A stretch of 64,000 nucleotides of DNA from Malacoraja senta. Its lineage: Eukaryota. The stretch is from positions 17,548,001 to 17,612,000 of the forward strand of contig CM075987.1 in assembly GCA_038087875.1 (NCBI GenBank). The letters run 5' to 3'. Under the pieces are notes generated by a model. It did not search any database and was not told where the DNA came from. It saw only the letters and a program-made list of their open reading frames with translations. The position numbers and the translations under genes are program-made. Shown here one piece after another: positions 2,921 through 53,000 of this stretch (position 1 is the first letter of the stretch; each line of letters begins with the position of its first letter).

Positions 2921-3983
2921 ATGTACGTCTTATCCCTCTATACTTATCCACCTATACTTTGTTCCTGCCACTACGTTTCTGCAGTTAACATAACATAGCA
3001 CAGCACAGGAACAGGCCCTCCAGCCCACAATATCTGTGCTCAACATGATACCATATTAACCTAATGCCCTGCCTGCACGTAATCCATATCCCTCCATTCT
3101 CTGCATTTCCACGTGCCTATCTAAAGCCTCATTCATGTCACTATCGTATGAGGCATAGATAAGGTAGACAGTCTGAACCCCTTCATCAAATACTTGGCTC
3201 TAATGTGAGAGGAACAAGGTGCCAAGTGAAAAGGAAACAGGAAATCGGATGAGGGGAGAAGAGGAGGAGTTATAGGTAAAGCCAGAGGGACGGATATGAT
3301 GAAGGGGAAACATACGGCTCAGGGATGGGAGATGACCATACAGAAGAGAGGAAAGAAGCATGTTGACTAGAGTGTTGGGAGATGGTGGGAGAAGTGAATA
3401 TGGAGACAGGGAAGCGAGGACCAGGGTAGGTATCTTGGCATTGCAGAATTTAATTGCATCTTGGTGGAACCAGTCTGTTGCTGAAGGTGCTCCTCAGTTT
3501 GACCAGTGTGTCACGGAGGGAGTGAGCTGTATTGTCCAGGATGCTCCGCAGTTTGAGGAGCATCCTCCCCTCCAAGACCACCTCCAGTGAATCCAACTCC
3601 GCCCCCAGGATGGAGCCAGCCTTGCTGATGAGTTTCTTGATCCTATTGGCGTCCGCAACCTTCGCCCTGTTGCCCCAGCACACGGCAGCGAAGAAGATGG
3701 CACTGGCTACCACCGATTGGTAGAACATCTGCAGCATCTCACTGCAGATGTTGAAGGAGCTGAGCCTTCTCAAAAAAGTACAGCCGTCTCTGTCCCTTCT
3801 TGTACAGGGCCTCAGCGTTCCTGGACCAGTCCAGTTTACTGTCCATGTACACTCCAAGTTAATTGTACTCCCTGGTAAACTGCTCATCCACACCATTGAT
3901 GGAGATAGGGGACAGGGTGTTCCTCTCCTCCTAAAGTCCACCACCAACTCCTTAGTCTTGCAGGTGTTGAGCTGCAGGTGATT

Positions 3984-14381: not shown

Positions 14382-14981
14382 CTTGGGATACAAAGGGAAA
14401 CAGAGGCCGGTGAGCCTCACATCAGTGGCACAATAAACAATAGACAATAGGAGCAGGAGTAGGCCATTCGGCCCTTCGAGCCAGCACCGCCATTCAATGT
14501 GATCATGGCTGATCATCCCCAATCAGTACCCCGTTCCTGCCTTCTCCCCATATCCCCTGACTCATCTCCGTTCTAAATGGCCTACCCCTTATTCTTAAAC
14601 TGTGGCCCCTGGTTCTGGACTCCCCCAACATCGGGAACACGTTTCCTGCCTACGGAAACTTCTGGTGAGGATTCTTCAATGTAGCAATTACCCCCATTTG
14701 GGGAAGACTGGGTTAATTAGGGACAGTCAGCATGGCTTCGTACACGGCAGGCCGTGTCTTATTAACTTGATCAAATGTTTTGACGGGGTGACAAAGGTGA
14801 TCGATGAGGTTCAAGATTCAAGATTCAATATAAACAAAGACACGTTAGTTAGGAAGTTTGCAGATGACACCAAGATTGCTGGGATTGTGGGCTTTGGGAA
14901 GGCTGTCAAAGTTTACAGTGGGATATAGATCAGCTCCAGAAATCAGCAGAGAGATGGCAGATGGAGTTAATGTCAGCAAGT

Positions 14982-15365: not shown

Positions 15366-15917
15366 AGGGTAGGTCAAATGTGAGGGGGAAATGCAGGGCT
15401 GCCAACTCTCACGCTTTCAGCGTGAGAATCACGCCTTGGAGCCAATTCTCACGCCCTCACGCTGATGACCGAGTTCTCACGCTGAGTTCAGTCCCTGTGC
15501 AGTTTGTCCCTTTGCGCCGCGTGCCAGCACGATCTGTCCGGTCTGGGGAAGCCCGTCGGTTGCCGGCTGTGAGTGACGTCGCGTCTCTTCTCTTCACTGT
15601 TGGTCGAATGTGCAGCTGCCGACAACATGAAGCAGCCGGAGATGGAACTAACCCGGTGAAGCGGTTGTAAAACATGGGGAGGGGGAGCGACGACGACCAC
15701 AATTAGGCCAAACATCTAGGACAGGGTTTGGACTACGGGCACACGGCCCGTAACCCGAAACACCGCGTATTGTTTTCAATTCGTTTTCGCGGGGTCGGGG
15801 CAGGCGAGCCGAGCTGAGAACTGCGGCCGGTCCCTGGGACGGGAGCTGATCTGGGAACAGCAGCCAGTCCCTGGGCACGCAGAATGGCAACTTGATCAGT
15901 ATGGACCAATTGGGCCC

Positions 15918-16552
15918 AAGGAAGAGAGAGGGGGTGGAGAGCGAGGAGAGAAGGGGAGAGAGGGGGGGGGAAGAGAGAGGGGTGGTAAAAGAGAGAGGAG
16001 AAAGAGGGAGAGAGGGGGGGGGGAGAGAGAAACGGGGGGAAGAGGGAGAGAGGAGGGCAAAGAGAAAGGAGATGGAGAAAAAGAGGGGAGAGAGAGGGTA
16101 GGGAGGGCAAGGGGGAGAGTGAGGTGGGAGGAAGAGAGGGGGAAGAGAGAGAGGAGGCGAGAGAGACAGGGAGAGTGAGGTGAGGGGAGAGAGGAGAAAG
16201 AGGGGGGAGAGAGAGAGGGGGAGAGAGAATGGAGAGAGAGGGGAAGAAAGGAGAGGGGGGAGAGAGAAGAGAGGGAAAGGGAGAGAGAGGGGGGAGATGG
16301 GAGAGAGAGGGGGTGAGAGGAGAGAGAGGGAGTGAGAGGGAGTGAGAGCAGAGAGAGGGGAGAGAGAGAGGGAGGGGAGATGGGGGAGAGAGGGGGTTAG
16401 AGGAGAGAGAGCGGAAGAGAGGGGAGAGAGAGAGGGAGAGAGAGAGGGGGGAGAGTGAGGTGGGAGGGAGAAAGAGGGAGAGAGAGGAGAGAGAGTGGGG
16501 GAGAGAGAGTGGGGGAGAGAGAGAGGGGGAGGGAGATAGGGGGATATAGAGG
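15918..16552. repeat. About 630-bp polypurine (GA-rich) low-complexity tract
   Basis: Almost exclusively G/A on the + strand. Confidence 0.95.
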
Positions 16553-16796
16553 CAGGGCTGCCAACTCCCATGCATTGAGCATGAGAATCACGCATTTTGC
16601 CAAATTTCTCACGCTCTGTCGTGAGAAACTCTGTGATCAACGAAAATTTCAAAACTAATATCAACTGCATGGGCCACGGGAGTTGGAAGCAGAAGCAGCG
16701 GCGGGGACAGATGCGGACGGGGAGCGGGGATGACGAGTGTTTGCTGGGATGGCGAGTGTTTGCTGGGCTGGCGAGTCGCTCACTGCAACTCCGGCC

Positions 16797-16952
16797 ATGG
16801 AGCAGCCTCAGTGCAAGAGTCCCGGGCCATCGGCGACGTCAGAAGCGTTGCGCCGCTGCCGTGGGAATCTCTGTGCCAAATTCGCCCAGGTGACCGGCAT
16901 GGATCAGGCTGCGGCTCGGTGCATCCTGGAGGACAACCAATGGCTGCTGGAA
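16797..16952 (+). pseudogene. Orphan first coding exon encoding a UBA-like domain (TDP2 N-terminus-like) inside the transposon
   Basis: Kozak gccATGg; CpG-rich; MEQPQCKSPGPSATSEALRRCRGNLCAKFAQVTGMDQAAARCILEDNQWLLE, then a perfect donor gtaagt (phase 0). No exon 2 found. Confidence 0.6.
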
Positions 16953-19900
16953 GTAAGTACGAAGCACTGGGTAGTAACGGTGGAAGATAGTGGACTTCAA
17001 ATGGGAGTGGTTGGAGAAAGCATCCTGCTTGCCTGCTAGATTTTCACTTACTGTAACTGCAGGAAAAATGTTCCCAATGTTGGGGGAGTTCAGAACCAGA
17101 GGTCACAGTTTAAGAATAAAGGGTAGGCCAGTTAGGACTGAGATGATGACAAACTTTCTTCACCAGAGAGTTCTGAATCTGTGTAATTCTCTGCCACAGA
17201 AGGCAGTGCAGGTGCCCACACCCACCAACATGTCCCAGCTACGCTACCTGCTTTTGGTCCATACCTCCAAACCTGCCCTATCCATGTATCAGTCTAACTG
17301 TTTCTTAAATGTTGGGATGGTCCCTGCCTCAACTACCTCCTCTGGCATTTTGTTCCATACATCCACCACCCTTTGTGTGGAATAAGTTACCCCTTAAAAA
17401 GTTACCTCTTAAAAATAATTAATACAAAAAACATTGAAATTATACTTCTACATTGCCCTAAACCTTGATATTAATACATCAAATTTCAAAAAGTCCCTAC
17501 CCTGGGAGGGGGGACACCCCACTTCCACACCCTCTCCCCATTCGGTTGCTCCACTCCCTCACCGGGTACCCCCAAAGCCAGTGATCAGTGATCGCTCAGC
17601 CTCCCCACCTTCAAAAATGCTCCATGGTCCTTGGTTCAGATGGAGAACACTGCCAGATGTGAGCGGGGAACTGAGGCCAGTTGTCCATGATGTCTGGATC
17701 CCAATGCTCAGCGCTTCATGTTTCGGAGTTGGCTAATGTTATTGATTTGTAATTAGCCTGATTTGTAATTAGTTGACAAAACCTTAATTTATGAATCTGG
17801 AATATCCAGGGGGATGGGATAAGTGTAATATTAAAATGATATGCAAGGTGTCAGGCTGTCTGTCACAACATACAGCCCCGTTAACCCATTATTTCCTTCA
17901 GTTAAATATTGGGAAGGTAGCACTATTGTCATTTGCCACTCAACTATTGTGTTTGTTTACCTCACTGACTATTTCTAAGCCCCCCCCTAAATTCCTTTGA
18001 CAGGTTGAATAAAAATGTCCCCAATAACGAATTCAACACGTAGATGAACATCCTCAAGGAGTGTAATCAGATGGAAACTGATTCAAATGCGATATTTAAG
18101 AGCTTGTTCAAAGAAGGGGAAAATTTTAAAGGAGTGACGGAGATACTTGCAGGGGAATGTGTGAGGAGGTTATTATTTTCTTTAGTTTTAGCTTGAACCA
18201 GGACATCTGAAGATTTAAAGTTTAATATAGTAATTGTACTGATACTGAACCCAACCAACCACGTAATGAATATCATCCATTCCGGAGGTTTGACTTTTAT
18301 GATGCCATTTAAACTTCACTTGGATTTCAATCACTTCAATGTAAAAGTAATTGGGAATGGGGAGCATTGGAACAAAAAATTGCCCTCGGTACATATTAAC
18401 TGCAATATAATAATGTATGCATGTAGGTAGGTGCAATCAAAACAAAGATATTGTTATCATTGTTGTGTTATGGATACCACAGAAAATATTATGTACTCTC
18501 AAGATCACATTTAATAGAATAATATTGCTTAAATATATAGTTATTGGACTTTGTAATTCGGAAAAGTCCCAGCTGAGAGGATGACAGCAAAATACTGAAA
18601 ATATTGGGGGTGAAAATGACTTCAGGACAGTTTGTTAGGAAAATGAAAGAAATGGTAACAGAATACTTATACAGCTGAGTGAGTATAATTTTATGGATGA
18701 GAAATTGTGTTCAACCAATTGATGACTAGCATGTTAGATAACAAGGAAGCCAATGGATGTAGCAAATTTTGTTATAGATAATTTGGTCTGTGAAGTGCCC
18801 CATAAAAGATTACTGCATTAGATAAGCACCTGTGGACTTGAACGTAATAGGTTAAGTCCAGGGGGTCAGATATGGGGCTTTATGTGAGGGCCAGATATAT
18901 TGTCAGTGCAGAGGGGCTAGGAGCAAGGCCAAGTGTGCATCCAGAGTCAAGGTCTGGAATAGTACTAGGTGTGCAGTCAAAGCCGGGACCAGGGGAGTGT
19001 TCAGCACTGGGAACCTAAGCAGGTAAGCAGCTATGATCAGGGTAGAATAGGGGGGGGGGAGGTGTAAGGCTGGACTCAGGGTCAGGAATGAGATAATGTC
19101 AGGGTCAGGAATGAGAGAAGGTATGCAACTGGAGTCAGGGTCACGAGTAGTACCCGGTGTGCAGTGAGACCCAGGTTGGTCAACATGGGCCATGTTTGAT
19201 TATATTCTGATTTCCATACATGAATATACTAAGATCATTCATGTGCTGCACCTGTTGATCAAAGCCTGGGCTCTACTGTGGAATGTAATTAGGAATGTAA
19301 TTTAATTTAACATTCAATCCAATTTAATCCAATTTAAAGCATATATATTGCATTCAAGTGTAAGTTAAAAGACTCGCTACAGTATGCATCATATTGTAGC
19401 GAGTGCCCCACCCTCCCCCCCGGTCGCTATGCTCCCTCGGGCTTGGTCTCTCGCAATTTCTCACTCCCAACTCTCACCCAATGTTGGCAGCCCTGAAAAT
19501 GTACAGATAGTGGCATGACCCACATCAGCATTCATGTACAGAGAGATCTTGGGGCCGGTCCATAACTCCCTGAATGTGGCAATGGCAGATAGAGGGATAA
19601 AGAGGGCATGTGGTTTACTTGCCTTCATAGGTCTGGGCTTTGAGTATAAGAGCCAGGATGGCTTGATGTAGCTTTATAATACTTTGGTCAGGCCACATTT
19701 GGAGCATTGTGTGCAGTTCTGGTCGCCCCATTACAGGAAGGATGTTAGAAATATAGAAATATAGAAAATAGGTGGAGTAGGCCATTCAGCCCTTTGAGCC
19801 TGTACTGCCATTCAATATGATCATGGCTGATCATCGAACTCAGTATCCTGTACCTGCCTTCTGTCCATACCCCCGATCCCTTTAACCACAAGGGCCACAT

Positions 19901-22039: not shown

Positions 22040-22848
22040 AAGGGAGCTTTGGCAGATCCGAATAATTCTCAGCTATGTTTTGTCTGGGGATAGTTACACT
22101 GTTATCTCTGGAATGTTGAATCAAGGACATTTTCTGTTCAAAACGTGTAAACAACTTTACAGCTGGAATATGAATCAGAAAATAATTGCTTATTGATTAA
22201 AATGTTATAACCAATTGTAAGAACTTATCCTATTAACAACTTTAAAAGTTATGCAGGTTAGATTAGAATACTAACAAAAAAAACAAAAAAATAATGAACT
22301 AACATACTAATATGAATTTTTAATAAATTGTAACCTTGTCTATAAGCGGGAGGAGGGGATGAGAAACGAGCTCCTGGCTTATGTCCAGGAGCACGTCTCG
22401 TTAACCCCTTCAACCAACAGTTGATTCTTATTGAAATCAAAAATATTGGTTTAATAATTAAACTCTGATATATATATATGTTATAAGGAAATATCAGGGT
22501 AAAATTGTATTATATATCTGAATGTGAGGCCTCGTTTTAATATTTTAATATGTTATGATTAACTAAGAGAGCGGAGCTAGTTGAGTAACAACGCAATGGA
22601 AGTCAACACAAGGTTTTTTCCCACCTACAGGTGGGTCACTCGCTACAGTGCCGATTATATCAGACACTGTAGCCTCACTTTTTTAGTTTTTTTTTAATCA
22701 CATAAAATCACTTGTTTGTGTTTTGTGTTTAGTGATAAGAGTAATAAGGACATACCAGCAAAAGTTAATAATTCAAAAACTCCCCCAATACCTAAAGACC
22801 TGGGACATGGACGCACCACAAGATTCAAAGGTACTATAATTATTCAAA

Positions 22849-25800
22849 ATGCATGACACCACACAAAAGAACCTAGGAGGAATCTCATTTTGTAGTTGGA
22901 ATATAAGAGGTATTAACGAACCTATCAAAAGGGGTAAGATATTAGCTCAGCTAAAAATGTATAATTCTGACATTACCTTCCTACAAGAAACACACCTAAA
23001 ACCTCAGGACCAAGTTAGGCTGAGGGCGAAATGGATAGGTCAAACATACCACTCTTCATTCACTTCAAAATCTAGAGGCACGTCAATTATCATAAGAAAA
23101 GGTATACCATTTAAAGCAAAGAATATTATAACAGATATAGAAGGGAGATACCTAATAGTTAATGGAGAAATCCATGACACTCCACTTACTTTGGTAAATA
23201 TATATGCCCCTAACTTTGATAACCCCCACTTTTTCAATAAAATCTTCAATATAATTGCAGAGTCAAACTATCAAAATGTTATAATAGGCGGAGACTTTAA
23301 CTGTGTTTTAGATCCGTACTTAGATAAATCAAGTCAAAAACAGAGAGGGAATATGAAATCGAAAACTGGGGAACTCCTCAATACCTATATAAATAACACT
23401 AATATAGCAGATGTTTGGAGAATTGTGAATCCAACTGGCAGGGAATATTCGTTTTACTCAATGGTACATAAGACATACTCACGTATAGACTACTTTCTGC
23501 TGGATACAAAATTAATCCCCCAAACATCTAATGCAATATACCATACAAATTCAATTTCAGACCATTCTCCACTAACTTTCTTTTTAAAACTGGAAGGTTT
23601 GTCTAAGAATAATTCATTCTGGAGATTTAACTCTCAAATTTTAAAAGATCCACAAGCGAGTATATATTTAAAAGAACAAATGGAGGTCTTTTTTCAAACA
23701 AATGATACTTCAGATATATCGCCTACTTTACTTTGGGAATCTTTTAAAGCATACATTAGGGGTATTATAATTTCATATCAAGCTTTTCAAAATAAAAAGA
23801 ATAAGAATGAACAAAGACAGTTAGAAGAACTTATTAGACAAATGGATATAGATAATGCTAAAGATCCATCAATAAATAAACATAATAAAATAATAATTTT
23901 AAAATTTAAATTAAATAAATTATTATCTGCCAAACTTATAAGACTTTTTCAAATTACAAAACAAGAGCACTTTGAATTTGGGGATAAACCGCATAAACTT
24001 TTGGCTCGCCAGCTAAAAAAACGAGAAAAGGAACATACTATACCAAAGATCAAATCAGATAAAGGGGAATTATTAACAACACCGAAGGATATTAATAAAA
24101 GATTTGCGCAATTTTACGAGAATTTGTATACATCTAAAACGATAATTGATTCCAATAATATCACAAAGTTCTTGGATACCTGTAATCTTCCAAAGTTAGA
24201 GATGAAGGAACAAGAGGAACTGGGTGCACAAATCTCAATTAAGGAATTAGAAGATACAATAAACTCATTAAAAAATGGAAAAACACCAGGCCCTGATGGA
24301 TTTACTAATGAATTTTATAAAAGCTTTTATGATAAAATAATACCAAGATTACAAAAAATGTACCAATACGCTTTTAAAAAACGAATACTACCTGATACAT
24401 TAGCGGAATCAACGATTACATTAATACCTAAGAAAAATAAAGATTTAGAAGAACCTGGCTCATATAGAGCTATAGCATTGTTAAACACAGATCAAAAAAT
24501 ATTAGCGAAAACATTAGCTAGAAGATTAAGTAAATACATTAGTAAATTAATAAACCCAGATCAGACAGGGTTTATCCCTAAGAGATACTCTTCTAATAAT
24601 ATGAGACGTCTACTCAACATAATGCACTCACACAAATCTGAAGATCAAGAATTATCAATTATTTCGCTGGATGCTGAAAAAGCATTTGATCAAGTAGAAT
24701 GGAATTATATGGATAAAGTATTACAAAAATTTCAACTGGGAGAGAATTTTATTTTATGGATTAAGTTACTATATAACAAACCTACAGCTAGAATACTTAC
24801 TAATAACATATTATCCTCGAAATTTCAACTATCAAGGGGAAATAGACAAGGATGCTCATTATCACCACAGCTATTTGCTCTCATTATTGAACCGCTAGCA
24901 GAAAAATTTAGAATACACCCTGATATTCATGGATATAATACTAAAGACTCATATAATAAAATATCTTTATACGCGGATGATATATTATTGTATATTACAA
25001 AACCTCAAATCACTATACCAAATATATTAAATTTAATTGAAGACTTCGGATCTTTTTCTGGATATAGAATAAATTGGAATAAAAGTGAAATTATGTCAAT
25101 AAAACCGAAAGATTCAACACATCTTTTAAAATTCCCTTTTAAAATAACTACAGAAAAATTTAAATATTTGGGAATCGAAATTACCAGAACATATCAAGGT
25201 ATGTTCAGGGCAAATTTTGACCCCCTACTTAATAAACTGAATACATTAATTAAATTCTGGAAAACGCTCCCGATGTCTTTAATAGGCCGAATAAACGCAA
25301 TAAAAATGATCTTTTTACCACAAATTTTATACCTATTTCAATCAATTCCTATATACTTACCTAAGAAGTTTTTTAAAAAACTCGACTCAGATATCACTAA
25401 TTTTATATGGGACTATAAATCACATAGAATACAAAAAACCCATCTGAATAAACCTAAAGTATTGGGGGGTCTAGCACTACCTAATTTTATGTATTATTAT
25501 TGGTCAGTAAATATTAAAAACATGATTCAACTGATGGATAACTCCGCCCAGCAAGTAGACTGGATTGTAATGGAGAAAGAGGATTGCTCCTCTAGAAACA
25601 TTGGAGCGATCCTCCTCTCTCCAATGAAACTGAATAACATAAACTATAATAAGAACCCAATTATTCATAGTACAATCCGAATTTGGAAACAAATAAAACA
25701 AAATTTAAAATTAAGAAACTTATCACTTTTATTACCTATAGTCAATAACCCTTTGTTTAGTCCTTCTATTATAGATAAAGCTTATACACAATGGGATAGA

Positions 25801-26640
25801 CTAGGAATTAAAACGCTTGGTGACTTGTATGAAACTGGAAAATTACTTTCATTTCAACAATTACAAATAAAATATAAACTCGGAAATAATCAATATTTTA
25901 AATATTTTCAAATATGCGACTATTTGAAAAAATATACAAAAGATCATCATAATAACCCAGCAGATGTACTGGACGAGGCAATGCAGATAAAAGCGGAATC
26001 AGCAAACTTAATATCATATTTGTATAATATTATCTTAAATGCACAAATACCATCTACGGAGGGTATCAGAAGAGACTGGGAACAAGAGTTAGCTATTAAA
26101 ATTTCAAAGGAAAGTTGGAATGAATACTTATTAAAAGTACATAAATGCTCGATTAATGTAAGACACACTTTAATACAATTTAAAATTTTACATAGATTAT
26201 ATTATTCGAAAACTAAAATTCATAAAATTTTCCCAAACGTATCATCTATTTGTGATAAATGTCAATCCCAAGAAGCAACTATAGCGCACTCATTTGTCTT
26301 CTGTACAAAAATTCAAAAATTTTGGAATGAAATTTTTGAAATCTTTACAAAGTTATTTAAAACAAGACTGATACCCAAAGCAGAATGGATTATCTTCGGA
26401 ATAACGGAAGATGATCCAGAACTAAATGTGTTTCAAAAGAAATTAATGGACTATGGGTTAATAACTGGAAAAAAGCTAATTCTAAAATTTTGGAAGAAGG
26501 CTCCAATACCAACTATAAATATGTGGATTTCAAATATGTTTGAAACATTACACCTTGAAGAGATAAGACTCCTCCTAGCAGGTAAACCAGATCACTTCCA
26601 CCTGACGTGGTCTGCATTTATAGAATTATTACAAACATAG
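22849..26640 (+). CDS. L1 ORF2p (APE endonuclease, reverse transcriptase, CCHC)
   Basis: 1263 aa uninterrupted; WNIRG, LQETH, GGDFN, SDH; DAEKAFD, RQGCSLSP, LYADD; CDKC-x8-H-x4-C. Confidence 0.96.
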   Translation: MHDTTQKNLGGISFCSWNIRGINEPIKRGKILAQLKMYNSDITFLQETHLKPQDQVRLRAKWIGQTYHSSFTSKSRGTSIIIRKGIPFKAKNIITDIEGRYLIVNGEIHDTPLTLVNIYAPNFDNPHFFNKIFNIIAESNYQNVIIGGDFNCVLDPYLDKSSQKQRGNMKSKTGELLNTYINNTNIADVWRIVNPTGREYSFYSMVHKTYSRIDYFLLDTKLIPQTSNAIYHTNSISDHSPLTFFLKLEGLSKNNSFWRFNSQILKDPQASIYLKEQMEVFFQTNDTSDISPTLLWESFKAYIRGIIISYQAFQNKKNKNEQRQLEELIRQMDIDNAKDPSINKHNKIIILKFKLNKLLSAKLIRLFQITKQEHFEFGDKPHKLLARQLKKREKEHTIPKIKSDKGELLTTPKDINKRFAQFYENLYTSKTIIDSNNITKFLDTCNLPKLEMKEQEELGAQISIKELEDTINSLKNGKTPGPDGFTNEFYKSFYDKIIPRLQKMYQYAFKKRILPDTLAESTITLIPKKNKDLEEPGSYRAIALLNTDQKILAKTLARRLSKYISKLINPDQTGFIPKRYSSNNMRRLLNIMHSHKSEDQELSIISLDAEKAFDQVEWNYMDKVLQKFQLGENFILWIKLLYNKPTARILTNNILSSKFQLSRGNRQGCSLSPQLFALIIEPLAEKFRIHPDIHGYNTKDSYNKISLYADDILLYITKPQITIPNILNLIEDFGSFSGYRINWNKSEIMSIKPKDSTHLLKFPFKITTEKFKYLGIEITRTYQGMFRANFDPLLNKLNTLIKFWKTLPMSLIGRINAIKMIFLPQILYLFQSIPIYLPKKFFKKLDSDITNFIWDYKSHRIQKTHLNKPKVLGGLALPNFMYYYWSVNIKNMIQLMDNSAQQVDWIVMEKEDCSSRNIGAILLSPMKLNNINYNKNPIIHSTIRIWKQIKQNLKLRNLSLLLPIVNNPLFSPSIIDKAYTQWDRLGIKTLGDLYETGKLLSFQQLQIKYKLGNNQYFKYFQICDYLKKYTKDHHNNPADVLDEAMQIKAESANLISYLYNIILNAQIPSTEGIRRDWEQELAIKISKESWNEYLLKVHKCSINVRHTLIQFKILHRLYYSKTKIHKIFPNVSSICDKCQSQEATIAHSFVFCTKIQKFWNEIFEIFTKLFKTRLIPKAEWIIFGITEDDPELNVFQKKLMDYGLITGKKLILKFWKKAPIPTINMWISNMFETLHLEEIRLLLAGKPDHFHLTWSAFIELLQT

Positions 26641-29454
26641 GGTGCAAAAGTACTTTAAAAAAAATAAAAAATTGAGGTCAGGTAAGGGGGGGTGATAGTT
26701 GAAGAGTTGGTATGTCCTATTTACGTGATGCTCAAAAAAAAAAACATTTGTTTCTCTTTTTTTCTCTTTCTCTTTTCTTTTCTTAGGGCCTATTTCTTAA
26801 CTCTTTTTCTTTTTGTTTTTAATTTCGCTCTTATAGGGTCTTCGTCCTTTTTTGTTGTTACATTTTCTACACTTTTCTACACTTGCACTTTTTCCTTCAC
26901 TTTCTTCTCTCTTTCAATCTTTTCTTTTTCTAGTGTAAAAAAATAAATAAAGGGAGTACATTAATTGTAAGAAGATATAAATGACGAGTATTAATGTATG
27001 TGGTTGTAATGTAATGTACTTCTAATAAATAAAAATTAAAAAAAAAAAAAAGATTCGTCAGACATGATTTACCTTTCGTAAATCCATGCTGACTTTGTCC
27101 AATGATTTCACCACTTTCCAAATGTGCTGCTAACCGATCTTTAATAACTGACTCTAGCAGTTTCCCCACTACCGATGTTAAACTAACTGGTCTGTAATTC
27201 CCCGTTTTCTCACTCCCTCCCTTTTTAAAAAGTGGGGTTACATTAGCTACCCTCCAATCCTCAGGAACTACTCCAGAATCCAAAGAGTTTTGAAAAATTA
27301 TCACTAATGCATCCACTATTTCTGGGGCTACTTCCTTAAGTACTCTGGAATGCAGCCTATCTGGCCCTGGGGGTTTATCGGCCTTTAATCCATTCAATTT
27401 ACCTAACACCACTTCCCGGCTAACCTGGATTTCACTCAGTTCCTCCATCTCATTTGACCCGCGGTCCCCTGCTATTTCCGGCAGATTATTTATGTCTTTC
27501 TTAGTGAAGACAGAACCAAAGTAGTTATTCAATTGGTCTGCCGTGTCCTTGTTCCCCATGATCAATTCACCTGTTTCTGACTGCAAGGGACCTACATTTG
27601 TTTTAACTAATCTTTTTCTCTTCACATATCTATAAAAACTTTTGCAGTCAGTTTTTATGTTCCCTGCCAGTTTTCTTTCATAATCTATTTACCCTTTCCT
27701 AATTAAGCCCTTTGTCCTCCTCTGCTGGACTCTGAATTTCTCCCAGTCCTCTGGTAGGCTGCTTTTTCTGGCTAATGTGTACGCTTCATCTTTTGTTTTG
27801 ATACTATCCCTGATTTCCATTGTCATCCACGGATGCACTACCTTCCCTGATTTATTCTTTTGCCAAACTGGAATGAACAATTGTTGTAGTTCATCCATGC
27901 AGTTTTTAAATGCCTTCCATTGCATATCGACCGTCAACCCTTTAAGAATCAATTGCCAGTCAATCTTTGCCAATTCACGTCTCATACCCTCAAATTACCT
28001 TTCTTTAAGTTCAGAACCCTTGTTTCTGAATTAACAATGTCACTATCCATCCTAATGAAGAACTCAACCATATTATGGTCACTCTTGCCCAAGGGGCCAC
28101 GCACACCAAGACTGCTAACTAACCCTTCCTCATTACTCAATACCCAGTCCAGAATAGCCTGCTCTCTCGTTGGTTCCTCTACATGTTGGTTTAGAAAACT
28201 ATCCCGCATACATTCCAAGAAATCCTCTTCCTCAGCACCCCTACCAATTTGATTCCCCCAACTATGTAGATTGAAGTCACCCATTATAACTGTTTTACCT
28301 TTGTTGCACGCATTTCTAATTTCCTGTTTGATGCCATCCCCAACTCCACTACTACTGTTAGGTGGCCTGTACACAACACCCACTAGCGTTTTCTGCCCCT
28401 TAGTGTTTCGCAGCTCTACCCATATCGATTCCACATCCTCCTTTCTATTGCGTTAATCTCCTCTCTAACCAGCAACGCTACCCCACCTCCTTTTCCTTTC
28501 TGTCTATCCCTCCTGAATATTGAATATCCCTGGATGTTCAGCTCCCAGCCTTGGTCACCCTGGAGCCATGTCTCCGTGATCCCAACTATATCATAATCAT
28601 TAATAGCTATCTGCACATTCAACATCCACCTTATTAGGAATGCTCCTTGCATTGAGACACAAAGCCTTCAGGCTTGTTTTTACAACACTCTTACCCCTTA
28701 TACAATTATGTTGAAAAGTGGCCCTTTTTGATTTTTGCCCTGGATTTGTCTGCCTGCCACTTTTACTTTTCACCTTGCTACCTATTGCTTCTACCCTCAT
28801 TTTACACCCCTGTCTCTCTGCTCACACATTTAAGAAACCCACCACCTCTTATTCTCTGTTTATTATTTTTTACCTTTTTCCCCCCCTACATGTTGGGTCT
28901 GAGTGCTTCCCTTCCCTGCCTCCTGCCTCACACACTGTCTACTAGCTTTTTCTTTTTGAGTCCCTCCCCCCAACCGTTCTAGTTTAAAGTCTCCCTAGTA
29001 CCCTTTGCAAATCTCCCCGCCAGGATATTGGTCCCCCTCGGGTTCAAGTGCAACCCGTCCTTTTTGTACAGGTCACACCTTCCCCAAAAGAGGCCCCAAT
29101 GATCGAGAAACTTGAATCCCTGCCCTCTGCACCAGTCCTTCAGCCACGCATTTATCCTCCACCTCGCTCCATTCCTACTCTCACTGTCGCTTGGCACAGG
29201 CAATAATCCTGAGATTGTTACCTTTGCGGTCCTTCTCCTTAACTCTCCTCCTAACTCACTAAATTCTCCTTTTAGGACCTCTTCTCTTTTTTTACCTGTC
29301 ATTGGTACCTATATGTACCACGACCTCAGGCTCCTCTCCCTCCCATTTCAGGATATCTTGGACATGTTGGAGGCTTACCAAAGGGTGTAGAGAAGCACTA
29401 CCAGAATGTTGCCTGGATTCGAGGGTAATAGCCACCGGGGGAGGTTGGAAAAAC

Positions 29455-35044: not shown

Positions 35045-38033
35045 TGTAAACAACTGAGTCACACAATGTAAGATCCAAGATCATCTTTAATCTTTATGCA
35101 AGCTATAGTGGTACAGTAGGTTGTTAGTTATCAGAGCATCATGACCGCTTCCAGAACTGAGCAGTATAGGAAGTAGGTGTTAATATAAATGGTACAGTAA
35201 GGTGGGGTTAGTGATGCTAGTCTACTCTGATTGGTTGTCATGCATAAACCAATCTACATCCTACCCCCTAAAGAGTGAGTATAGTGAGCACACATGTCAT
35301 AAGAATTAAACAAATTCGCCATATCTATCAGGCGGTCTACTAATACGGCCCGAACGCGTACGGACCAAGCCCTCTCCCCCTTCGCCGGAAAGATTAAAGG
35401 GAGGTGGTGACCCCGGAAGCGAGATGGCAGCAGGGGACACCAGTGGTGGCCGACAGGGGGAGCATGCAGGAGAGGTAATTCCGTGGTTAGTCACAGCCGC
35501 TGGTCGTGGAGGAGTGTGGGACTTGCTGGGCCTGGTGGAAGGTACAGCAGCAAACGGCTGGAACTGAAGTGGTGGAGCATAAGGACTGGCCAGTGGCGGA
35601 CGTGGTTCCTTCACGGCAAGCAAATGTTGGTGGCTTCTGCGGTATATGGTACCATCATAGTCCACAAGGTATGATCGAGGTTCTTCAGCCAGGCCGACAG
35701 TACTATCCAGACAGGAATGTCCCATAGAAGTTTGTAAACTAACGACCTGGCCCGGAAGTAGAGGCTTAAGTGGTTTGCTGGACTTGTCATGCGATCGTTT
35801 CTGAATGTCGTGTTTCTCCTGGATACGCTTTTGGATTGTAGCTGGCTTCAGCACCTGCGGTATCAGCTTCTGCTGAGCAATCGGAATCGGAGGTCTCGTT
35901 GTTCTGGACATCAGTCGCTGGGCCGGCGAGCCCAGGGTCCCTTCTCTAGCAATGTTACTGAGATTGAAAAGATCAAGGTACACATCTGAATTGGCAAGGT
36001 ATGCACGTTCCATTAGATGTTTATCACTTCTGACAGCTCGTTCAGCGAGCCCGTTACTCTGTGGGTATTCAGGACTGCTCGTGACATGGTGGAAATTCCA
36101 TCGGTTGGCAAAGAGTTTGAAAGCGTAGCTGGTAAACTGTCTTCCGTTGTCGGCCTGCAAACGGACGGGTGCGCCGAATATAGAAAAATGTTTCTTTAGC
36201 TTTCGAATGACCATCTCAGATGTGATGGAGGTAAGTAGGTCGAATTCAAACCAGTTTGAAAAGGAGTCAACCAGGACAAGATAGTGTGTACCGCATCATT
36301 CGAAAATGTCTGACGTCCAGGGCAGAGCTGGTGGAGGTTGTTGCAGTAAGGGCTGCCTCTGCTGGTGTGGTGCAAGACTGTTGCAAGTGGAGCAGGAGGC
36401 TATATGGTCCCGTATGTACTTGGCCATCCCAGGCCAGTAGAACAGGTTCTATGCGTGGGTCAGCGTGGCATCAATTCCTGGGTGACCGCTCTGTGCCTCA
36501 TTTTAGTATTCCTCACGTAGCGATGAGGGGATCACGACTTTGTGGCCCTTAACTATGACACCATCCTGTATTACCAGTTCATCGCGGACTAAGAAGAACG
36601 ACTGCACCTCTGTTGGTACGCTAGATTGTCTGTCTGGCCAACCTCTTTTGATCACGGATGAAAGTATCTGGAGGGTGGCGTCGGTGACTGTATGTTCGGC
36701 TAGGCGGCGCAGTTGTTTCGTAGGAACAAAGTCAATGCCTAGGACCGTAAACTCGTCCTGTTCGTAGGGGTGACGTTCGCTGGATGCCCGTGGTGCACGA
36801 GAGAGAGTGTCCGCAACGTGCATGTCTTTACCCTTTTTGTAAACAAGTTTAAAGTCGAAACGCTGGAGCTGCATCATCATGCGTTGCAAGCGTGCTGGTG
36901 CAGCATGGATGGGATCGTCAACAGTGGTTGGTGGTCTGTCTCGACTGTGAAGCCGTTTCCAAAGATAAAATCCTTGAATTTGGAACAGGCAAAGACGACA
37001 GCCAGCAGCTCCTTCTCGATTTGCGCATAGCGCTGTTCGGTGTCTGTCATGGTGCAGGAGGCATAGGAGACGGGGTGCAAGGCACCATCGGCAGATTGTT
37101 GTAGGCAGGCTGCACCGAGCCCGAATCGCGAGGCATCACAGGTAACTGTCACAGGGCGCTTCAGGTCGAAGAATGTCAGGGTTGGTGTGCTGGTCAGCTT
37201 CGATTTTAAAGCGTCAAATGCTTTTTGGTGTTGCTGGAACCAGGACCAATTGTATCCTTTCTAGTCAGTTGTCGCAGGGGCGAACTCAGTTCACTGAGGT
37301 TTGGTATGAATTTTCCAAGATAGTTCACCATACCCAGGAATCGCTGCAGGCCGAGCACGTCGGTGGGGGCAGGCATCTCTGTGATGGTGGCAGTTTTCTT
37401 CAGATCCGGCTTGGGGCCGTCAAGAGTGAACACATGCCCAACGTAGGTGACCTCTGAAACCCTGAACTTACACTTGTTAGGGTTGAGCTTCAGGTTGATC
37501 TGACGTGCCCGGTCCATGATAAGCTTTAGGTTGTGGTCGTGCTCCAGTGTGTCTTTGCCATACACCATGATATCGTCGACAATGATGGCGCATGGGAAGC
37601 CCAGGAACAGCAGCTCCATGTTCCTCTGGAAGACCTCACTGGCTGAGTTGATGCCGAATGGCATTCTTAGAAACTTGAATCTGCCAAATGAAGTGGAAAA
37701 TGTGGTGAGGTTTGACGACTCGTTGTCCAGCGGTATCTGCCAGAAGGAGCTCTTTGCATCGAGGATGGAAAATATGTGCCGCATCGTCCTCGACAGTCCT
37801 CATAGGATAGTGAGGGCGCCTGATGGCAGAGTTCAAATCTTTCGGATTGATGCACACGCGGAGCTCGTTTTTATCCTTCTTGAGTAGCAACCATGGTGGA
37901 GACCCAATCAGTGGGCTCACTGACCTCTTCTAGCCCGCCTAAGGAGACCATGTTTTTTAGCTCGGACTCAATCCTGTCCCTCATGGCATGTGCCACGCGA
38001 TGTGGTGCACGAACGACAGGTACCACATTGGAT
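35045..38033 (-). mobile_element. Degenerate Ty3/Gypsy LTR retrotransposon (RT-RNaseH-integrase plus 3' LTR), cut by the gap
   Basis: LTR 35045-35258 (TG...CA) preceded by a polypurine tract at 35259-35272. RT LDAKSSFWQI, RMPFGI, IVDD; RH CDAS, YAQIEKE, TDHQPL; IN ADNGRQF, YPQSNGLAERAV; frameshifts and stops. Confidence 0.92.
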
Positions 38034-38233
38034 NNNNNNNNNNNNNNNNNNNNNNNNNNNNNNNNNNNNNNNNNNNNNNNNNNNNNNNNNNNNNNNNNNN
38101 NNNNNNNNNNNNNNNNNNNNNNNNNNNNNNNNNNNNNNNNNNNNNNNNNNNNNNNNNNNNNNNNNNNNNNNNNNNNNNNNNNNNNNNNNNNNNNNNNNNN
38201 NNNNNNNNNNNNNNNNNNNNNNNNNNNNNNNNN
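38034..38233. other. Assembly gap (200 N)
   Basis: Exactly 200 N; the Gypsy element on the left does not continue on the right. Confidence 0.99.
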
Positions 38234-38490
38234 AGGTTGGTTTGTGTGATGGTCTGGGCTGCTGTCCTTGCCGAGGCAGCGTGAGGTATAAATGGAGTCA
38301 ATGGAAGGGAGGTTGGTTTGTGTGATGGTCTGGGCTGCTGGCCTTGCCGAGGCAGCGTGAGGTATAAATGGAGTCAATGGAAGGGGGGTTGGTTTGTGTG
38401 ATGGTCTGGGCTGCTGGCCTTGCCAAGGCAGCGTGAGGTGTAGATGGAGTCAGTGGAAGGGAGGTTGGTTTGTGTGATGGTCTGGGCTGC
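38234..38490. repeat. 76-bp tandem repeat derived from Rex1-type LINE coding sequence, abutting the gap
   Basis: Units at 38234, 38310, 38386 and 38462; the minus strand reads LPSIDSIYTSRCLGKA. Confidence 0.88.
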
Positions 38491-38626
38491 GTCCACAATT
38501 CGCTGTAATTTCCTGCGGTCTTGGATGGAGCTGTTGCCAACAGCTGGGATACGTGCGGGTCGATAGTTAGCCTTGGCATCATGATGGGCTCAGACATTGT
38601 GGGCGTGTGGGTCTGTTCCAGTGCTG

Positions 38627-38930
38627 TGTCATCATCTTCATCGGCGGTCACTCTAAACGAGTATGACTGTCCTCTCCTCTCCATAGGGTCGTCTACTTGT
38701 GGGTCTGCAGATATCTGTAGAGGCCGATCCGCGATCCACACACCTTGGTGCAACGTGGGCAGTGGAGACTGGCTGTGGTTGGTAGTCGTCGAGCCCCCTT
38801 CTCTCTCTCCTTACGGTGCTGTCGCATTGTCTCTGACACAGCGTAGTTCCATTTTGTGACGTGCAGCTCCTTCCTGCATAGATTTCTTTCCAGCTGTTAT
38901 ACAGGCGCTCCTGGAGGCAATCCTTACTTG
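38627..38930 (-). mobile_element. RTE LINE 3' fragment
   Basis: C-terminal CPRCTKVCGSRIGLYRYLQTHK* zinc-finger-like motif followed by a (gat)n tail. Confidence 0.7.
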
Positions 38931-50048: not shown

Positions 50049-53000
50049 TTTTTTTAATTTTTTTAATTATTTTTTATTTTTTTATTTTTATTTATTAGAA
50101 GTACATTACATTACAACCACATACATTAATACTCGTCATTTATATCTTCTTACAATTAATGTACTCCCTTTATTTATTTTTTTACACTAGAAAAGGAAAA
50201 GATTGAAAGAAAGAAGAAAGTGAAGGAAAAAGTGAAAGTGTAGAAAAGTGTAGAAAATGTAACAACAAAAAAGGACGAAGACCCTATAAGAGCGAAATTA
50301 AAAACAAAAGAAAAAGAGTTAAGAAATAGGCCCTAGGAAAAAAAAGAGAAAGAGAGGAAAAAAAAAAGAAAAATAAATATTTTTTTGAGCATTACATAAA
50401 TAGGACATACCAACTCTTCAACTATCATCCCCCCTTACCTGACCTCAATTTTTTATTTTTTTTTAAGTACTTTTGCACCCTATGTTTGTAATAATTCTAT
50501 AAATGCAGACCACGTCAGGTGGAAGTGATCTGGTTTACCTGCTAGGAGGAGTCTTATCTCTTCTAGGTGTAATGTTTCAAACATATTTGAAATCCACATA
50601 TTTATAGTTGGTATTGGAGCCTTCTTCCAAAATTTTAGAATTAGCTTTTTTCCAGTTATTAACCCATAGTCCATTAATTTCTTTTGAAACACATTTATTT
50701 TTGGATCATCTTCCGTTATTCCGAAGATAATCCATTCTGCTTTGGGTATCAGTCTTGTTTTAAATAACTTTGTAAAGATTTCAAAAATTTCATTCCAAAA
50801 TTTTTGAATTTTTGTACAGAAGACGAATGAGTGCGCTTCTTGGGATTGACATTTATCACAAATAGATGATACATTTGGGAACATTTTATGAATTTTAGTT
50901 TTCGAATAATATAATCTATGTAAAATTTTAAATTGTGTTAAGGTGTGTCTTACATTAATCGAGCATTTATGCACGTTTAATAAGTATTCATTCCAACTTT
51001 CCTTTGAAATTTTAATAGCTAACTCTTGTTCCCAGTCTCTTCTGATACCCTCCGTAGGTGGTATTTGTACATTTAAAATAATATTATACAAATATGATAT
51101 TAAGTTTGCTGATTCCGCTTTTATCTGCATTGCCTCGTCCAATACATGTACTGGGTTATTATAATGATCTTTTGTATATTTTTTCAAATAGTCGCATATT
51201 TGAAAATATTTAAAATATTGATTATTTCCGAGTTTATATTTTATTTGTAATTGTTGAAATGAAAGTAATTTTCCAGTTTCATACAAGTCACCAACCGTTT
51301 TAATTCCTAGTCTATCCCATTGTGTATAAGTTTTATCTATAATAGAAGGACTAAACGAAAGGTTATTGACTATAGGTAATAAAAGTGATAAATTTCTTAA
51401 TTTTAAATTTTGTTTTATTTGTTTCCAAATACGGATTGTACTATAAATAATTGGGTTCTTATTATAATTTTTGTTATTCAGTTTCATTGGAGAGAGGAGG
51501 ATCGCTCCAATGTTTCTAGAGGAGCAATCCTCTTTCTCCATTACAATCCAGTCTACTTGCTGGGTGGAGTTATCCATCAGTTGAATCATGTTTTTAATAT
51601 TTACTGACCAATAATAATACATAAAATTAGGTAGTGCTAAACCCCCCAATACTTTAGGTTTATTCAGATGAGTTTTTTGTATTCTATGTGATTTATAGTC
51701 CCATATAAAATTAGTGATATCTGAGTCGAGTTTTTTAAAAAACTTCTTAGGTAAGTATATAGGAATTGATTGAAATAGGTATAAAATTTGTGGTAAAAAG
51801 ATCATTTTTATTGCGTTTATTCGGCCTATTAAAGACATCGGGAGCGTTTTCCAGAATTTAATTAGTGTATTTAATTTATTAAGTAGGGGGTCAAAATTTG
51901 CCCTGAACATACCTTGATATGTTCTGGTAATTTCGATTCCCAAATATTTAAATTTTTCTGTAGCTATTTTAAAAGGGAATTTTAAAAGATGTGTTGAATC
52001 TTTCGGTTTTATTGACATAATTTCACTTTTATTCCAATTTATTCTATATCCAGAAAAAGATCCAAAGTCTTCAATTAAATTTAATATATTTGGTATAGTG
52101 ATTTGAGGTTTTGTAATATACAGTAATATATCATCCGCGTATGAAGATATTTTATTATATGAGTCTTTGGTATTATATCCATGAATATCAGGGTGTATTC
52201 TAATTTTTTCTGCTAGCGGTTCAATAATGAGAGCAAACAGCTGTGGTGATAATGAGCATCCTTGTCTATTTCCCCTTGATAGTTGAAATTTCGAGGATAA
52301 TATGTTATTAGTTAGTATTCTAGCTGTAGGTTTGTTATATAGTAACTTAATCCATAAAATAAAATTCTCTCCCAGTTGAAATTTTTGTAATACTTTATCC
52401 ATATAATTCCATTCTACTTGATCAAATGCTTTTTCAGCATCCAGCGAAATAATTGATAATTCTTGATCTTCAGATTTGTGTGAGTGCATTATGTTGAGTA
52501 GACGTCTCGTATTATTAGAAGAATATCTCTTAGGGATAAACCCTGTCTGATCTGGGTTTATTAATTTACTAATGTATTTACTTAATCTTCTAGCTAATGT
52601 TTTCGCTAATATTTTTTGATCTGTGTTTAACAATGCTATAGCTCTATATGAGCCAGGTTCTTCTAAATCCTTATTTTTCTTAGGTATTAATGTAATCGTT
52701 GATTCCGCTAATGTATCAGGTAGTATTCGTTTTTTAAAAGCGTATTGGTACATTTTTTGTAATCTTGGTATTATTTTATCATAAAAGCTTTTATAAAATT
52801 CATTAGTAAATCCATCAGGGCCTGGTGTTTTTCCATTCTTTAGTGAGTTTATTGTATCTTCTAATTCCTTAATTGAGATTTGTGCACCCAGTTCCTCTTG
52901 TTCCTTCAGCTCTAACTTTGGAAGATTACAGGTATCCAAGAACTTTGTGATATTATTGGAATCAATTATCGTTTTAGATGTATACAAATTCTCGTAAAAT

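Follow-up and report, generated by a model that had tools for sequence, protein, structure and literature searches.

A 64,000 nucleotide stretch of contig CM075987.1 of Malacoraja senta, referred to here as the window, contains at positions 15394–19495 what we take, with a probability of roughly 90 %, to be a decayed copy of a high-copy Pack-TIR transposon in which a block derived from the 5′ part of the host gene TDP2 travels as a passenger. The segment is one copy of a non-autonomous transposon with terminal inverted repeats (TIRs), and its assignment as a Pack-TIR is supported by the presence of inverted repeats, by target-site duplications that vary among copies, by the lack of a transposase and by an internal segment copied from a host gene whose own locus is not part of any copy. 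The presence of a captured TDP2 first exon in a Pack-type element, as proposed in an initial annotation made from the sequence alone, is likewise supported.

Organization of the window copy

The features of the element are listed in Table 1. The 13 bp TIR CAGGGCTGCCAAC at its left end is matched at the right end by a perfect inverted copy (13 of 13 positions complementary), and these repeats bound the 4.1 kb element that the initial annotation had delimited. A third copy of the TIR, in direct orientation, lies within the element at 16553–16565; the three matches in the window compare with 0.11 expected, and three were reached by none of 100 shuffles. The duplication pair of the window copy itself (gaaatg/aaaatg) is imperfect, agreeing at five of six positions, and the length of 6 bp is taken from 28 other copies. 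Exact duplications of 5–8 bp were read by eye in seven of eight end pairs, and 20 further end pairs on contig C1 yielded 16 more (6 bp in ten, 7 bp in four, 8 bp in one and 5 bp in one) and four with none. Overall, 23 of the 28 pairs have an exact duplication of 5–8 bp with a mode of 6 bp, and a length of 8 bp was rejected; the longest in a control set of 380 mispaired end pairs was 4 bp. Since the duplications vary from copy to copy, the composite structure has been transposed after the capture.

Table 1. Features of the transposon copy in the window
Feature	Position	Strand	Basis or remarks
Left target-site duplication (gaaatg)	15388..15393	.	Direct reading
Outer 5′ end: 13 bp TIR (15394–15406), then subterminal DNA in which TCTCACGC/GCGTGAGA motifs recur	15394..15483	+	
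Unique CpG-rich stretch within the outer 5′ unit	15484..15920	+	Whole outer unit also in L002, L004, L006, L015, L019 and L088
GA-rich satellite within the element	15921..16552	+	Length differs among copies
5′ end repeated internally (TIR 16553–16565 and subterminal repeats)	16553..16684	+	
Captured TDP2 5′ flank/5′ UTR	16685..16796	+	Firm from 16746, weaker at 16685–16745
Captured TDP2 exon 1, 52 codons	16797..16952	+	Matches to Pfam UBA_4, skate TDP2 and PDB
Captured part of TDP2 intron 1, from donor GTAAGT	16953..17394	+	Collinear with intron 1 of TDP2a and TDP2b
Family-specific internal and 3′ subterminal DNA, no coding capacity	17395..19482	+	Collinear with 12 other copies
3′ TIR	19483..19495	-	Matched to the 5′ TIR
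Right target-site duplication (aaaatg)	19496..19501	.	Direct reading

The outer 5′ unit (15394–15920) has a G+C content of 0.59 and a CpG observed/expected ratio of 0.92, and its subterminal short repeats occur in both orientations; at nine other loci the part corresponding to 15484–15920 is replaced by a partial duplicate of 16553–16880. A nested second element starting at the internal TIR was considered and rejected: family-internal sequence lies directly before this TIR at 11 of 12 loci, and it is the outer TIR rather than the one at 16553 that the target-site duplications join with the 3′ TIR. The twelfth locus, L017, is a single-unit copy and speaks for the 5′ end having been duplicated internally at a later stage. 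About 300 bp are missing from the window copy at 17212/17213, a piece that is present at 12 of 19 other loci, and some members of the family are deletion derivatives in which 17074 is joined to about 18562. The family-specific DNA downstream of the captured block is 88–95 % identical to that of 12 other copies. The element has no non-repetitive ORF of more than 142 amino acids, and a Pfam search with the five ORFs of at least 85 amino acids that overlap it gave no match, in agreement with the earlier view that it carries no transposase.

The parental TDP2 genes

Two tandem TDP2 genes, TDP2a and TDP2b, which differ from each other by 2.4 %, are located on a different contig from the window (C19). 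The captured block corresponds to window positions 16746–17394, possibly from 16685, and contains exon 1 with some 5′ flank before it and part of intron 1 after it; it is ~0.95 kb long in full-length copies and ~0.65–0.7 kb in the window copy. TDP2 exon 1 with its flanks is 83 % identical to 16746–17212, and through the piece missing from the window copy the match carries on to 17394 at 87–91 %. The blastn matches to both TDP2 loci start at 16746, and in copy L022 the match reaches 61 bp further upstream (80 % identity), to TDP2b only; a 19 bp tandem repeat is present at 16724–16761 within the captured flank. An interspersed repeat begins at about 17058 in the captured intron part, and the last intron segment is 87–91 % identical to the TDP2a intron as against about 70–82 % to the repeat's other genomic copies; the repeat was already in TDP2 intron 1 before the capture. 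That 5′ flank, exon 1 and intron 1 are all shared, the intron collinearly, bears out the proposed origin of the exon.

Among named proteins, the exon peptide is most closely related to the NCBI TDP2 of Leucoraja erinacea (little skate), with 80 % identity over all 52 residues, and exon 1 of this gene ends at the same residue as the captured exon, the boundary at which the initial annotation had placed the end of the TDP2 first exon. The peptide also matches the TDP2 UBA chain 6q00_B in the PDB (E-value 6e-4), whose sequence is the one that the initial annotation had given for the TDP2 N-terminus; residues 21–52 of the peptide align with residues 3–34 of this 45-residue chain (PDB 6q00/6q01 chain B). 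Relative to host exon 1, which has 60 codons, the captured exon has a 24 bp deletion.

The opposite direction of transfer, in which the exon is transposon-derived, having perhaps once opened the gene of a lost transposase, and was then acquired by the TDP2 genes, is extremely improbable. The only points in its favour are the sharing of exon 1 as such and the lack of an autonomous element by which such a first exon could be excluded; but the UBA N-terminus is found both in 6q00_B and, with the same exon boundary, in little skate TDP2, and neither a TIR nor any other family sequence was found in 20 kb at each TDP2 5′ end. Moreover, the shared block extends into ordinary intron DNA with the interspersed repeat at the same junction, and the transposon version, with its 24 bp deletion, is the derived one. 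The capture of the block from TDP2 would have occurred once, by transduplication at the DNA level through gap repair or template switching.

Copy number and divergence of the family

A 24-mer of the 5′ end (from 15394) has 1537 matches in the genome with no more than one mismatch, a 25-mer of the 3′ end has 1514, and the reversed control of each has none; within the 1.94 Gb genome the family numbers at least about 1,500 copies. When the genome was searched with 498 bp surrounding the exon, 2244 first-look candidates appeared, and the 40 of them that were scored have 83–96 % identity. The exon is thus multicopy and is associated with the TIRs elsewhere, and the possibility raised at the outset that it might be single-copy falls away. 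The 20 copies sampled for the exon differ by 2–4 % from their own majority sequence, and since they are those most similar to the window copy the divergence figures are biased low; the majority sequence differs from host TDP2 by 7–8 % in the exon and by 11–13 % in the intron. The family would now be old, and it is probably inactive.

Superfamily and mobilization

Transposons of the hAT superfamily have the terminal motif YARNG and classically make target-site duplications of 8 bp. The TIR of the present family starts with CAGGG, which fits this motif, and is short (13 bp), and the subterminal short repeats in both orientations also speak for a hAT; however, the modal duplication is 6 bp. A hAT6 group with 6 bp duplications has been described and placed among the animal hATs (Kapitonov & Jurka, 2007, Repbase Reports, as cited in PMC12730594), so that this length does not exclude a hAT. 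Membership of hAT6 is set by the transposase, and none was found here; the hAT-like assignment made initially therefore stands as putative and unproven, fitting the CAGGG terminus and the hAT6 group but not the classical 8 bp.

Less likely is an origin in another superfamily with 6 bp duplications, such as IS3EU, or in an undescribed one. IS3EU elements likewise make 6 bp duplications (as described in PMC12730594), which the present family fits in length, and of the 150 scored hAT dimerization-domain matches, the eight loci inspected showed no TIR, with up to two mismatches allowed, within 1.2 kb downstream. Against this stand the form of the termini, the existence of hAT6 and the many remnants of hAT transposases in the genome (1648 first-look candidates). 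Three unusually long copies of 6.7, 8.0 and 9.5 kb were rejected as autonomous partners, since the elements nested in them are LINE-like or DIRS-like retroelements and a DNA transposase is lacking. Because neither an autonomous partner nor a transposase was found, we can only infer the superfamily and the mobilizing enzyme: a transposase, most likely a hAT with 6 bp duplications (hAT6), that recognizes CAGGGCTGCCAAC together with the subterminal repeats would have mobilized the element in trans.

Coding content and use of the captured exon

The ATG of the exon is at 16797, not 16798, and is followed by a 52-codon open frame to 16952 and by GTAAGT at 16953. The start codon lies in the context ccggccATGg, which has G at both −3 and +4, and the block 16685–16952 has a G+C content of 0.64 and a CpG observed/expected ratio of 0.83, compared with 0.12–0.29 in the remaining downstream part of the element, much as the initial annotation had described in reporting a CpG-rich exon with a strong start context and a perfect donor. 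The UBA-like character of the peptide, also suggested there, is confirmed by a match to Pfam UBA_4 (E-value 3.2e-5; 24.1 bits, the cut-off being 21.8). This match covers only profile positions 3–30 of 43, so the exon alone is unable to give a complete domain; it encodes the N-terminal two-thirds or so of the UBA, the rest of which is encoded by exon 2 in TDP2 itself. Compared with the TDP2 UBA of PDB 6q00/6q01 chain B, the captured exon stops at UBA_4 position 30.

These properties raise the question of exaptation, in which the CpG-rich TDP2 5′ block serves as a dispersed promoter and first exon that is spliced onto host exons in some genes. There are precedents in bats, where a Helitron-borne NUBPL promoter and first exon contribute to chimeric transcripts (as described in PMC4224331), and in animal Pack-TIRs, many of which are transcribed as chimeras according to the survey in PMC8277862. 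The retention of the ATG and of GTAAGT in all 20 sampled copies, an open frame in 15 of them, a crude pN/pS of 0.59 for the exon and the high CpG ratio of the block are further points in its favour. The number of open frames is, by our estimate, about that expected from roughly 6.5 random substitutions per copy, and the conserved ATG and donor and a pN/pS below 1 may be compatible with weak constraint on the exon. In this low-biased sample, however, the divergence of the exon (0.042, or 0.035 without CpG sites) exceeds that of the intron (0.022) and of the transposon's own 5′ region (0.030). The donor GT survives in 378 of 394 copies (95.9 %), no better than a control exonic dinucleotide, which survives in 378 of 387 (97.7 %).

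The RNA data point the same way. In a polyA RNA run, 31 reads cross the donor into the intron unspliced at window position 16961, the exon bin has a low depth of ~28 with reads on both strands, and no spliced joint at 16952 is among the best-supported joints listed. These results refer to ~6 % of one run, whose organism is possibly not the species of the window, and to the best-supported joints and loose ends, so that rare splicing from 16952 could be missed; the runs X1 and X3 are probably of DNA. The longer named proteins that start with the exon are bona fide TDP2 only (three matches among 28 candidates). A library of 1.84 billion proteins gave 14 matches, of which the only credible one is P0004, a read-through ORF of one copy; the other 13, long proteins matching in several short stretches, were rejected. 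With the partial domain added to these observations, we consider exaptation quite improbable. Its products would be alternative 5′ ends or fusions with an N-terminal TDP2 fragment.

The exon looks instead like a passive passenger: its divergence is at least that of its flanks, its donor is not favoured, the reads are unspliced and its domain is partial. It would be carried neutrally rather than as a used coding exon. The earlier idea that the element spreads a promoter and an exon able to splice onto neighbours thus holds in so far as a TDP2 5′ block has been dispersed, but no spliced reads were seen in the RNA, and promoter capture is unproven because only about 50–110 bp upstream of the ATG were captured. 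Rather unlikely, too, is a role of the family as a candidate genome-wide supply of alternative promoters and first exons for host genes, one that would draw on well over a thousand CpG-rich 5′ ends of a housekeeping gene, each with a consensus donor and a strongly placed ATG, or a conflict in which small RNAs aimed at the transposon cross-silence TDP2; such a conflict, if true, could explain the diverged, indel-bearing exon 1 of the host and the tandem duplication of TDP2.

Genomic surroundings

Two repeat halves (14849–14972 and 19535–19757), which are 85–91 bp apart in four other copies, flank the element. The initial annotation had used a split host CR1 to define the insertion; the flanking halves are indeed present, but the split is only approximate, as gaps of about 420 bp and 39 bp separate them from the ends of the element. 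The placement of the exon antisense to an ADAM gene found no support: none of the 145 window ORFs of at least 85 amino acids has an ADAM domain, and no match inside the window came from scanning the genome with PF01421 and PF01562, the Reprolysin exons being 29 kb below and 36 kb above it.

Relationship to known gene-capturing elements

For plants, there is ample documentation of gene fragments being captured by cut-and-paste transposons. The Pack-MULE and Pack-TYPE elements described in PMC8903248 resemble the present family in concept, as non-autonomous DNA transposons whose terminal regions enclose pieces of genes that they have taken up and reshuffled, but they are mostly Mutator-like or CACTA elements with many captures, each in low copy, whereas here a single capture has reached a very high copy number in a vertebrate. 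A closer parallel is provided by the Pack-TIRs surveyed in 100 animal genomes (Tan et al., 2021, Nat Commun, PMC8277862), of which hATs are the commonest carriers (208 of 370); these too are non-autonomous TIR carriers of a duplicated host fragment with an identifiable parental copy. As reported there, exonic fragments are over-represented, the median captured size is 224 bp, captures are almost always single-copy and four Pack-TIRs (1.4 %) are multicopy, with an example amplified onto three chromosomes. In contrast, the present family counts at least about 1,500 members, and its captured block measures ~0.95 kb. The kind of element is a known one, the animal Pack-TIR, and it is the copy number that stands out, a gene-fragment capture on this scale being unusual among animals.

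In Myotis, HelibatN3 has taken up the 5′ end of NUBPL (Pritham & Feschotte, 2007, as described in PMC4224331); this case differs in that the carrier is a Helitron, a rolling-circle element without TIRs or target-site duplications, in a mammal, and in having documented chimeric transcripts; the present family is a TIR element with 6 bp duplications and a putative promoter, for which no chimeric transcript was seen. Amplification after capture in an animal TIR family can thus equal the extreme represented by the bat Helitron and NUBPL. Our literature search found no paper linking TDP2 with transposon capture, although the family may already be catalogued in Repbase or Dfam. It offers a natural system for asking how often dispersed first exons and CpG-rich 5′ ends are co-opted and whether the parent gene is affected. 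We note finally, as a matter for annotation, that copies with open frames and a UBA_4 match are already predicted as proteins in public data (P0002 and P0004).

Structure of the element

Most of what the initial annotation described at window positions 15394–19495 (terminal inverted repeats, an exon with its donor and no transposase) is borne out with small corrections. The TIR occurs three times in the window, compared with 0.11 expected from shuffling. The exon's open frame and donor stand as annotated, although the frame starts one base earlier than had been placed. All non-repetitive ORFs in the element are of 142 aa or less, and those of at least 85 aa have no Pfam match.

Features of the element, its surroundings and the host TDP2 loci
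Feature	Position	Strand	Remarks
5′ TIR	15394		CAGGGCTGCCAAC
Outer 5′ unit	15394–15920		CpG-island-like: GC 0.59, CpG o/e 0.92
Part of outer 5′ unit	15484–15920		GTGAGT donor-like site
CpG-rich unit			0.5 kb, between the two direct TIR copies; part of the outer 5′ unit
GA-rich satellite			630 bp, between the two direct TIR copies
Third TIR copy	16553		Direct orientation
19 bp units	16724–16761		5′ edge of captured block
Exon, open frame	16797–16952		52 codons, then GTAAGT
3′ TIR	19483–19495		Perfect inverted copy
LINE ORF2-like frame	22840–26637	+	1266 aa, uninterrupted; endonuclease, reverse transcriptase
GDSL-lipase-like ORF	28982–29308	−	Sub-threshold match
LTR retroelement remnants	35309–38810	−	Integrase core, RNase H, reverse transcriptase
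LINE ORF2-like frame	50483–54271	−	1263 aa, uninterrupted; endonuclease, reverse transcriptase
TDP2 tandem paralogs	C19:4603402–4641386 and C19:4674572–4712516	−	Loci L033–L046
hAT dimerisation-domain match	C19:4663418–4663567		Between the two TDP2 paralogs
Reprolysin (ADAM-type) exon cluster	C11: 16.81, 17.51–17.52, 17.65, 17.75–17.77 Mb	Both	

The segment 15484–15920 may derive from another host 5′ end taken up by the element, or else from the lost autonomous element, as its 5′ region; the same outer unit heads L088, a 9.5 kb copy that is otherwise unrelated. The 19 bp unit is present twice in most copies, as one unit plus a partial one in the host gene, and about nine times in the copy L010 (about 3051–3238), and is a minisatellite that has expanded inside the transposon.

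Copy number, target-site duplications and superfamily

The element belongs to a mobile, high-copy family. A search of the genome (1.94 Gb) with 498 bp around the exon gave 2244 first-look candidates, 40 of which were scored and are 83–96 % identical to the window copy. The first 24 and last 25 bases of the element have 1537 and 1514 genome matches respectively at no more than one mismatch, and the reversed controls none; with about 1500 matches per end, the multicopy state of the element is confirmed.

Collinearity with window 16553–19495 was seen in 12 copies retrieved over 10 kb. Shorter derivatives, with 17074 joined to about 18562, were seen at 5 of 19 loci, and a piece of about 300 bp at 17212/17213, present at 12 of the 19, has been lost from the window copy and from one other (L002). 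The 3′ TIR is partnered by the outer TIR and not by the internal one, which is part of a duplicated 5′ unit. At nine of the 19 loci the upstream 5′ unit is a partial duplicate of 16553–16880, so that the exon start occurs twice there; an upstream unit of the 15394–15920 type is found at five loci and in the window, and one locus (L017) has a single 5′ unit only.

Exact flanking direct repeats of 5–8 bp were seen by eye in seven of eight two-ended copies, and on contig C1 another 20 end pairs include 16 that also have repeats (6 bp in ten, 7 bp in four, 8 bp and 5 bp in one each); the longest repeat among 380 mispaired end controls is 4 bp. A true duplication length of 6 bp, extended by chance in some copies, accounts for these lengths. 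The window copy itself is flanked by gaaatg and aaaatg.

The hAT-like assignment is probable. The CAGGG terminus agrees with the hAT terminal motif, and the 13 bp TIR and the short repeats that lie, in either orientation, next to the ends also fit hAT, but the duplication is 6 bp long and not the classical 8 bp. According to a published account, 6 bp duplications are made by the hAT6 group, as here, and likewise by IS3EU elements (PMC12730594). There are 1648 first-look candidates for hAT remnants in the genome; since none of the eight hAT transposase loci looked at has the TIR, and nested retroelements account for the size of three long family members, the mobilising transposase was not found among these.

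Origin and age of the captured block

The 52-residue exon peptide passes the UBA profile check, matching Pfam UBA_4 at 24.1 bits (cut-off 21.8; profile positions 3–30 of 43) and the solved TDP2 UBA chain 6q00_B (E-value 6e-4), whose sequence is the same as the TDP2 N terminus given in the initial annotation. The sole named match among longer proteins in a collection of 5.8 billion is the NCBI TDP2 of Leucoraja erinacea, which is 80 % identical across all 52 residues and whose exon 1, as had been proposed, ends at the same residue; the remaining two matches come from other assemblies, where they are ORFs reading through transposon copies. The rest of this TDP2, used as a query, located two tandem genes (TDP2a and TDP2b) on contig C19, with a 60-codon exon 1 and donor GTAGGT upstream of each.

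Comparison with the host genes showed that 5′ flank, exon 1 and intron 1 are common to gene and element. Window 16746–17212 is 83 % identical to both loci; in a full-length copy the match reaches 61 bp further upstream (80 %, TDP2b only) and, downstream, crosses the piece missing from the window copy to the equivalent of 17394. The final matched segment is an interspersed repeat, 87–91 % identical to the TDP2a intron compared with about 70–82 % to its copies elsewhere in the genome; this repeat meets unique intron DNA at the identical point in gene and transposon. The 20 kb retrieved at the 5′ end of each TDP2 gene contains neither a TIR nor other family sequence. The shared block, the common repeat junction and the lack of family sequence at those 5′ ends together show that the transfer ran from gene to transposon. 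The transferred block consisted of exon 1, which lost 24 bp after capture, together with about 50–110 bp of the 5′ flank and about 0.74 kb of intron 1.

Twenty sampled copies lie 2–4 % from their majority sequence, although these are the copies most like the window copy and the true spread is therefore larger. The majority sequence differs from host TDP2 by 7–8 % (exon) and 11–13 % (intron), and the exon-1 regions of the two host genes are 2.4 % apart. By these divergences, capture came before the burst sampled here and before TDP2 was homogenised or duplicated. Several coded organisms have contigs or reads that cover the element at 88 % likeness or more, in keeping with an old family common to related species.

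Is the exon used?

No sign of exon use was found. The exon diverges no more slowly than the sequence around it: the values are 0.042 (0.035 without CpG sites) in the exon, 0.022 in the intron and 0.030 in the 5′ region that belongs to the transposon itself. The crude pN/pS is 0.59. All 20 sampled copies have retained the ATG and GTAAGT, and 15 have an open frame, which we estimate to be close to expectation from random substitution at about 6.5 changes per 156 bp. Across the genome, 394 copies have their 21 flanking bases intact, and the donor GT survives in 378 of them; a control exonic dinucleotide survives in 378 of 387. On its own, the exon encodes a UBA domain whose final third is missing, and protein-collection searches found no chimeric models starting with it.

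The RNA evidence is one polyA run from an organism given by code, of which about 6 % was read. Each strand of the exon has a depth of about 13–15, and 31 reads pass the donor unspliced into the intron. The suggested splicing onto neighbours did not appear, no joint at 16952 being among the best-supported joints listed, where rare splicing could be hidden; nor was a cluster of molecule starts upstream of the exon among the best-supported loose ends listed.

Comparison with known elements

The segment 15394–19495 shows all the features that define Pack-TIR elements, and a literature search found nothing linking TDP2 with transposon capture. The family stands out for the number of copies it has reached in a vertebrate; no evidence of function was found. 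In the survey by Tan et al., 100 animal genomes yielded 370 Pack-TIRs, 208 of them on hAT, with only four multicopy and a median capture of 224 bp (PMC8277862). In scale and content it most resembles the Helitron HelibatN3, which in a bat amplified the NUBPL promoter and 5′ UTR, with the first exon and a portion of intron 1, to about a thousand copies (PMC4224331).

Genomic surroundings

The window consists mostly of retroelements. The claim of a split CR1 is only approximately right, as a repeat whose halves are adjacent in four other copies flanks the element left and right, but the halves are not flush with the element ends. The element had also been placed antisense to ADAM; genome profile scans found no Reprolysin exons inside the window, exons of the ADAM cluster lying 29 kb below it (minus strand) and 36 kb above it (plus strand). 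The two uninterrupted LINE frames suggest a LINE family recently active in this genome. The GDSL-lipase-like ORF (E-value 2.6e-7; 31.7 bits, cut-off 32.9) adjoins endonuclease and reverse-transcriptase pieces and is presumably a LINE esterase-like domain.
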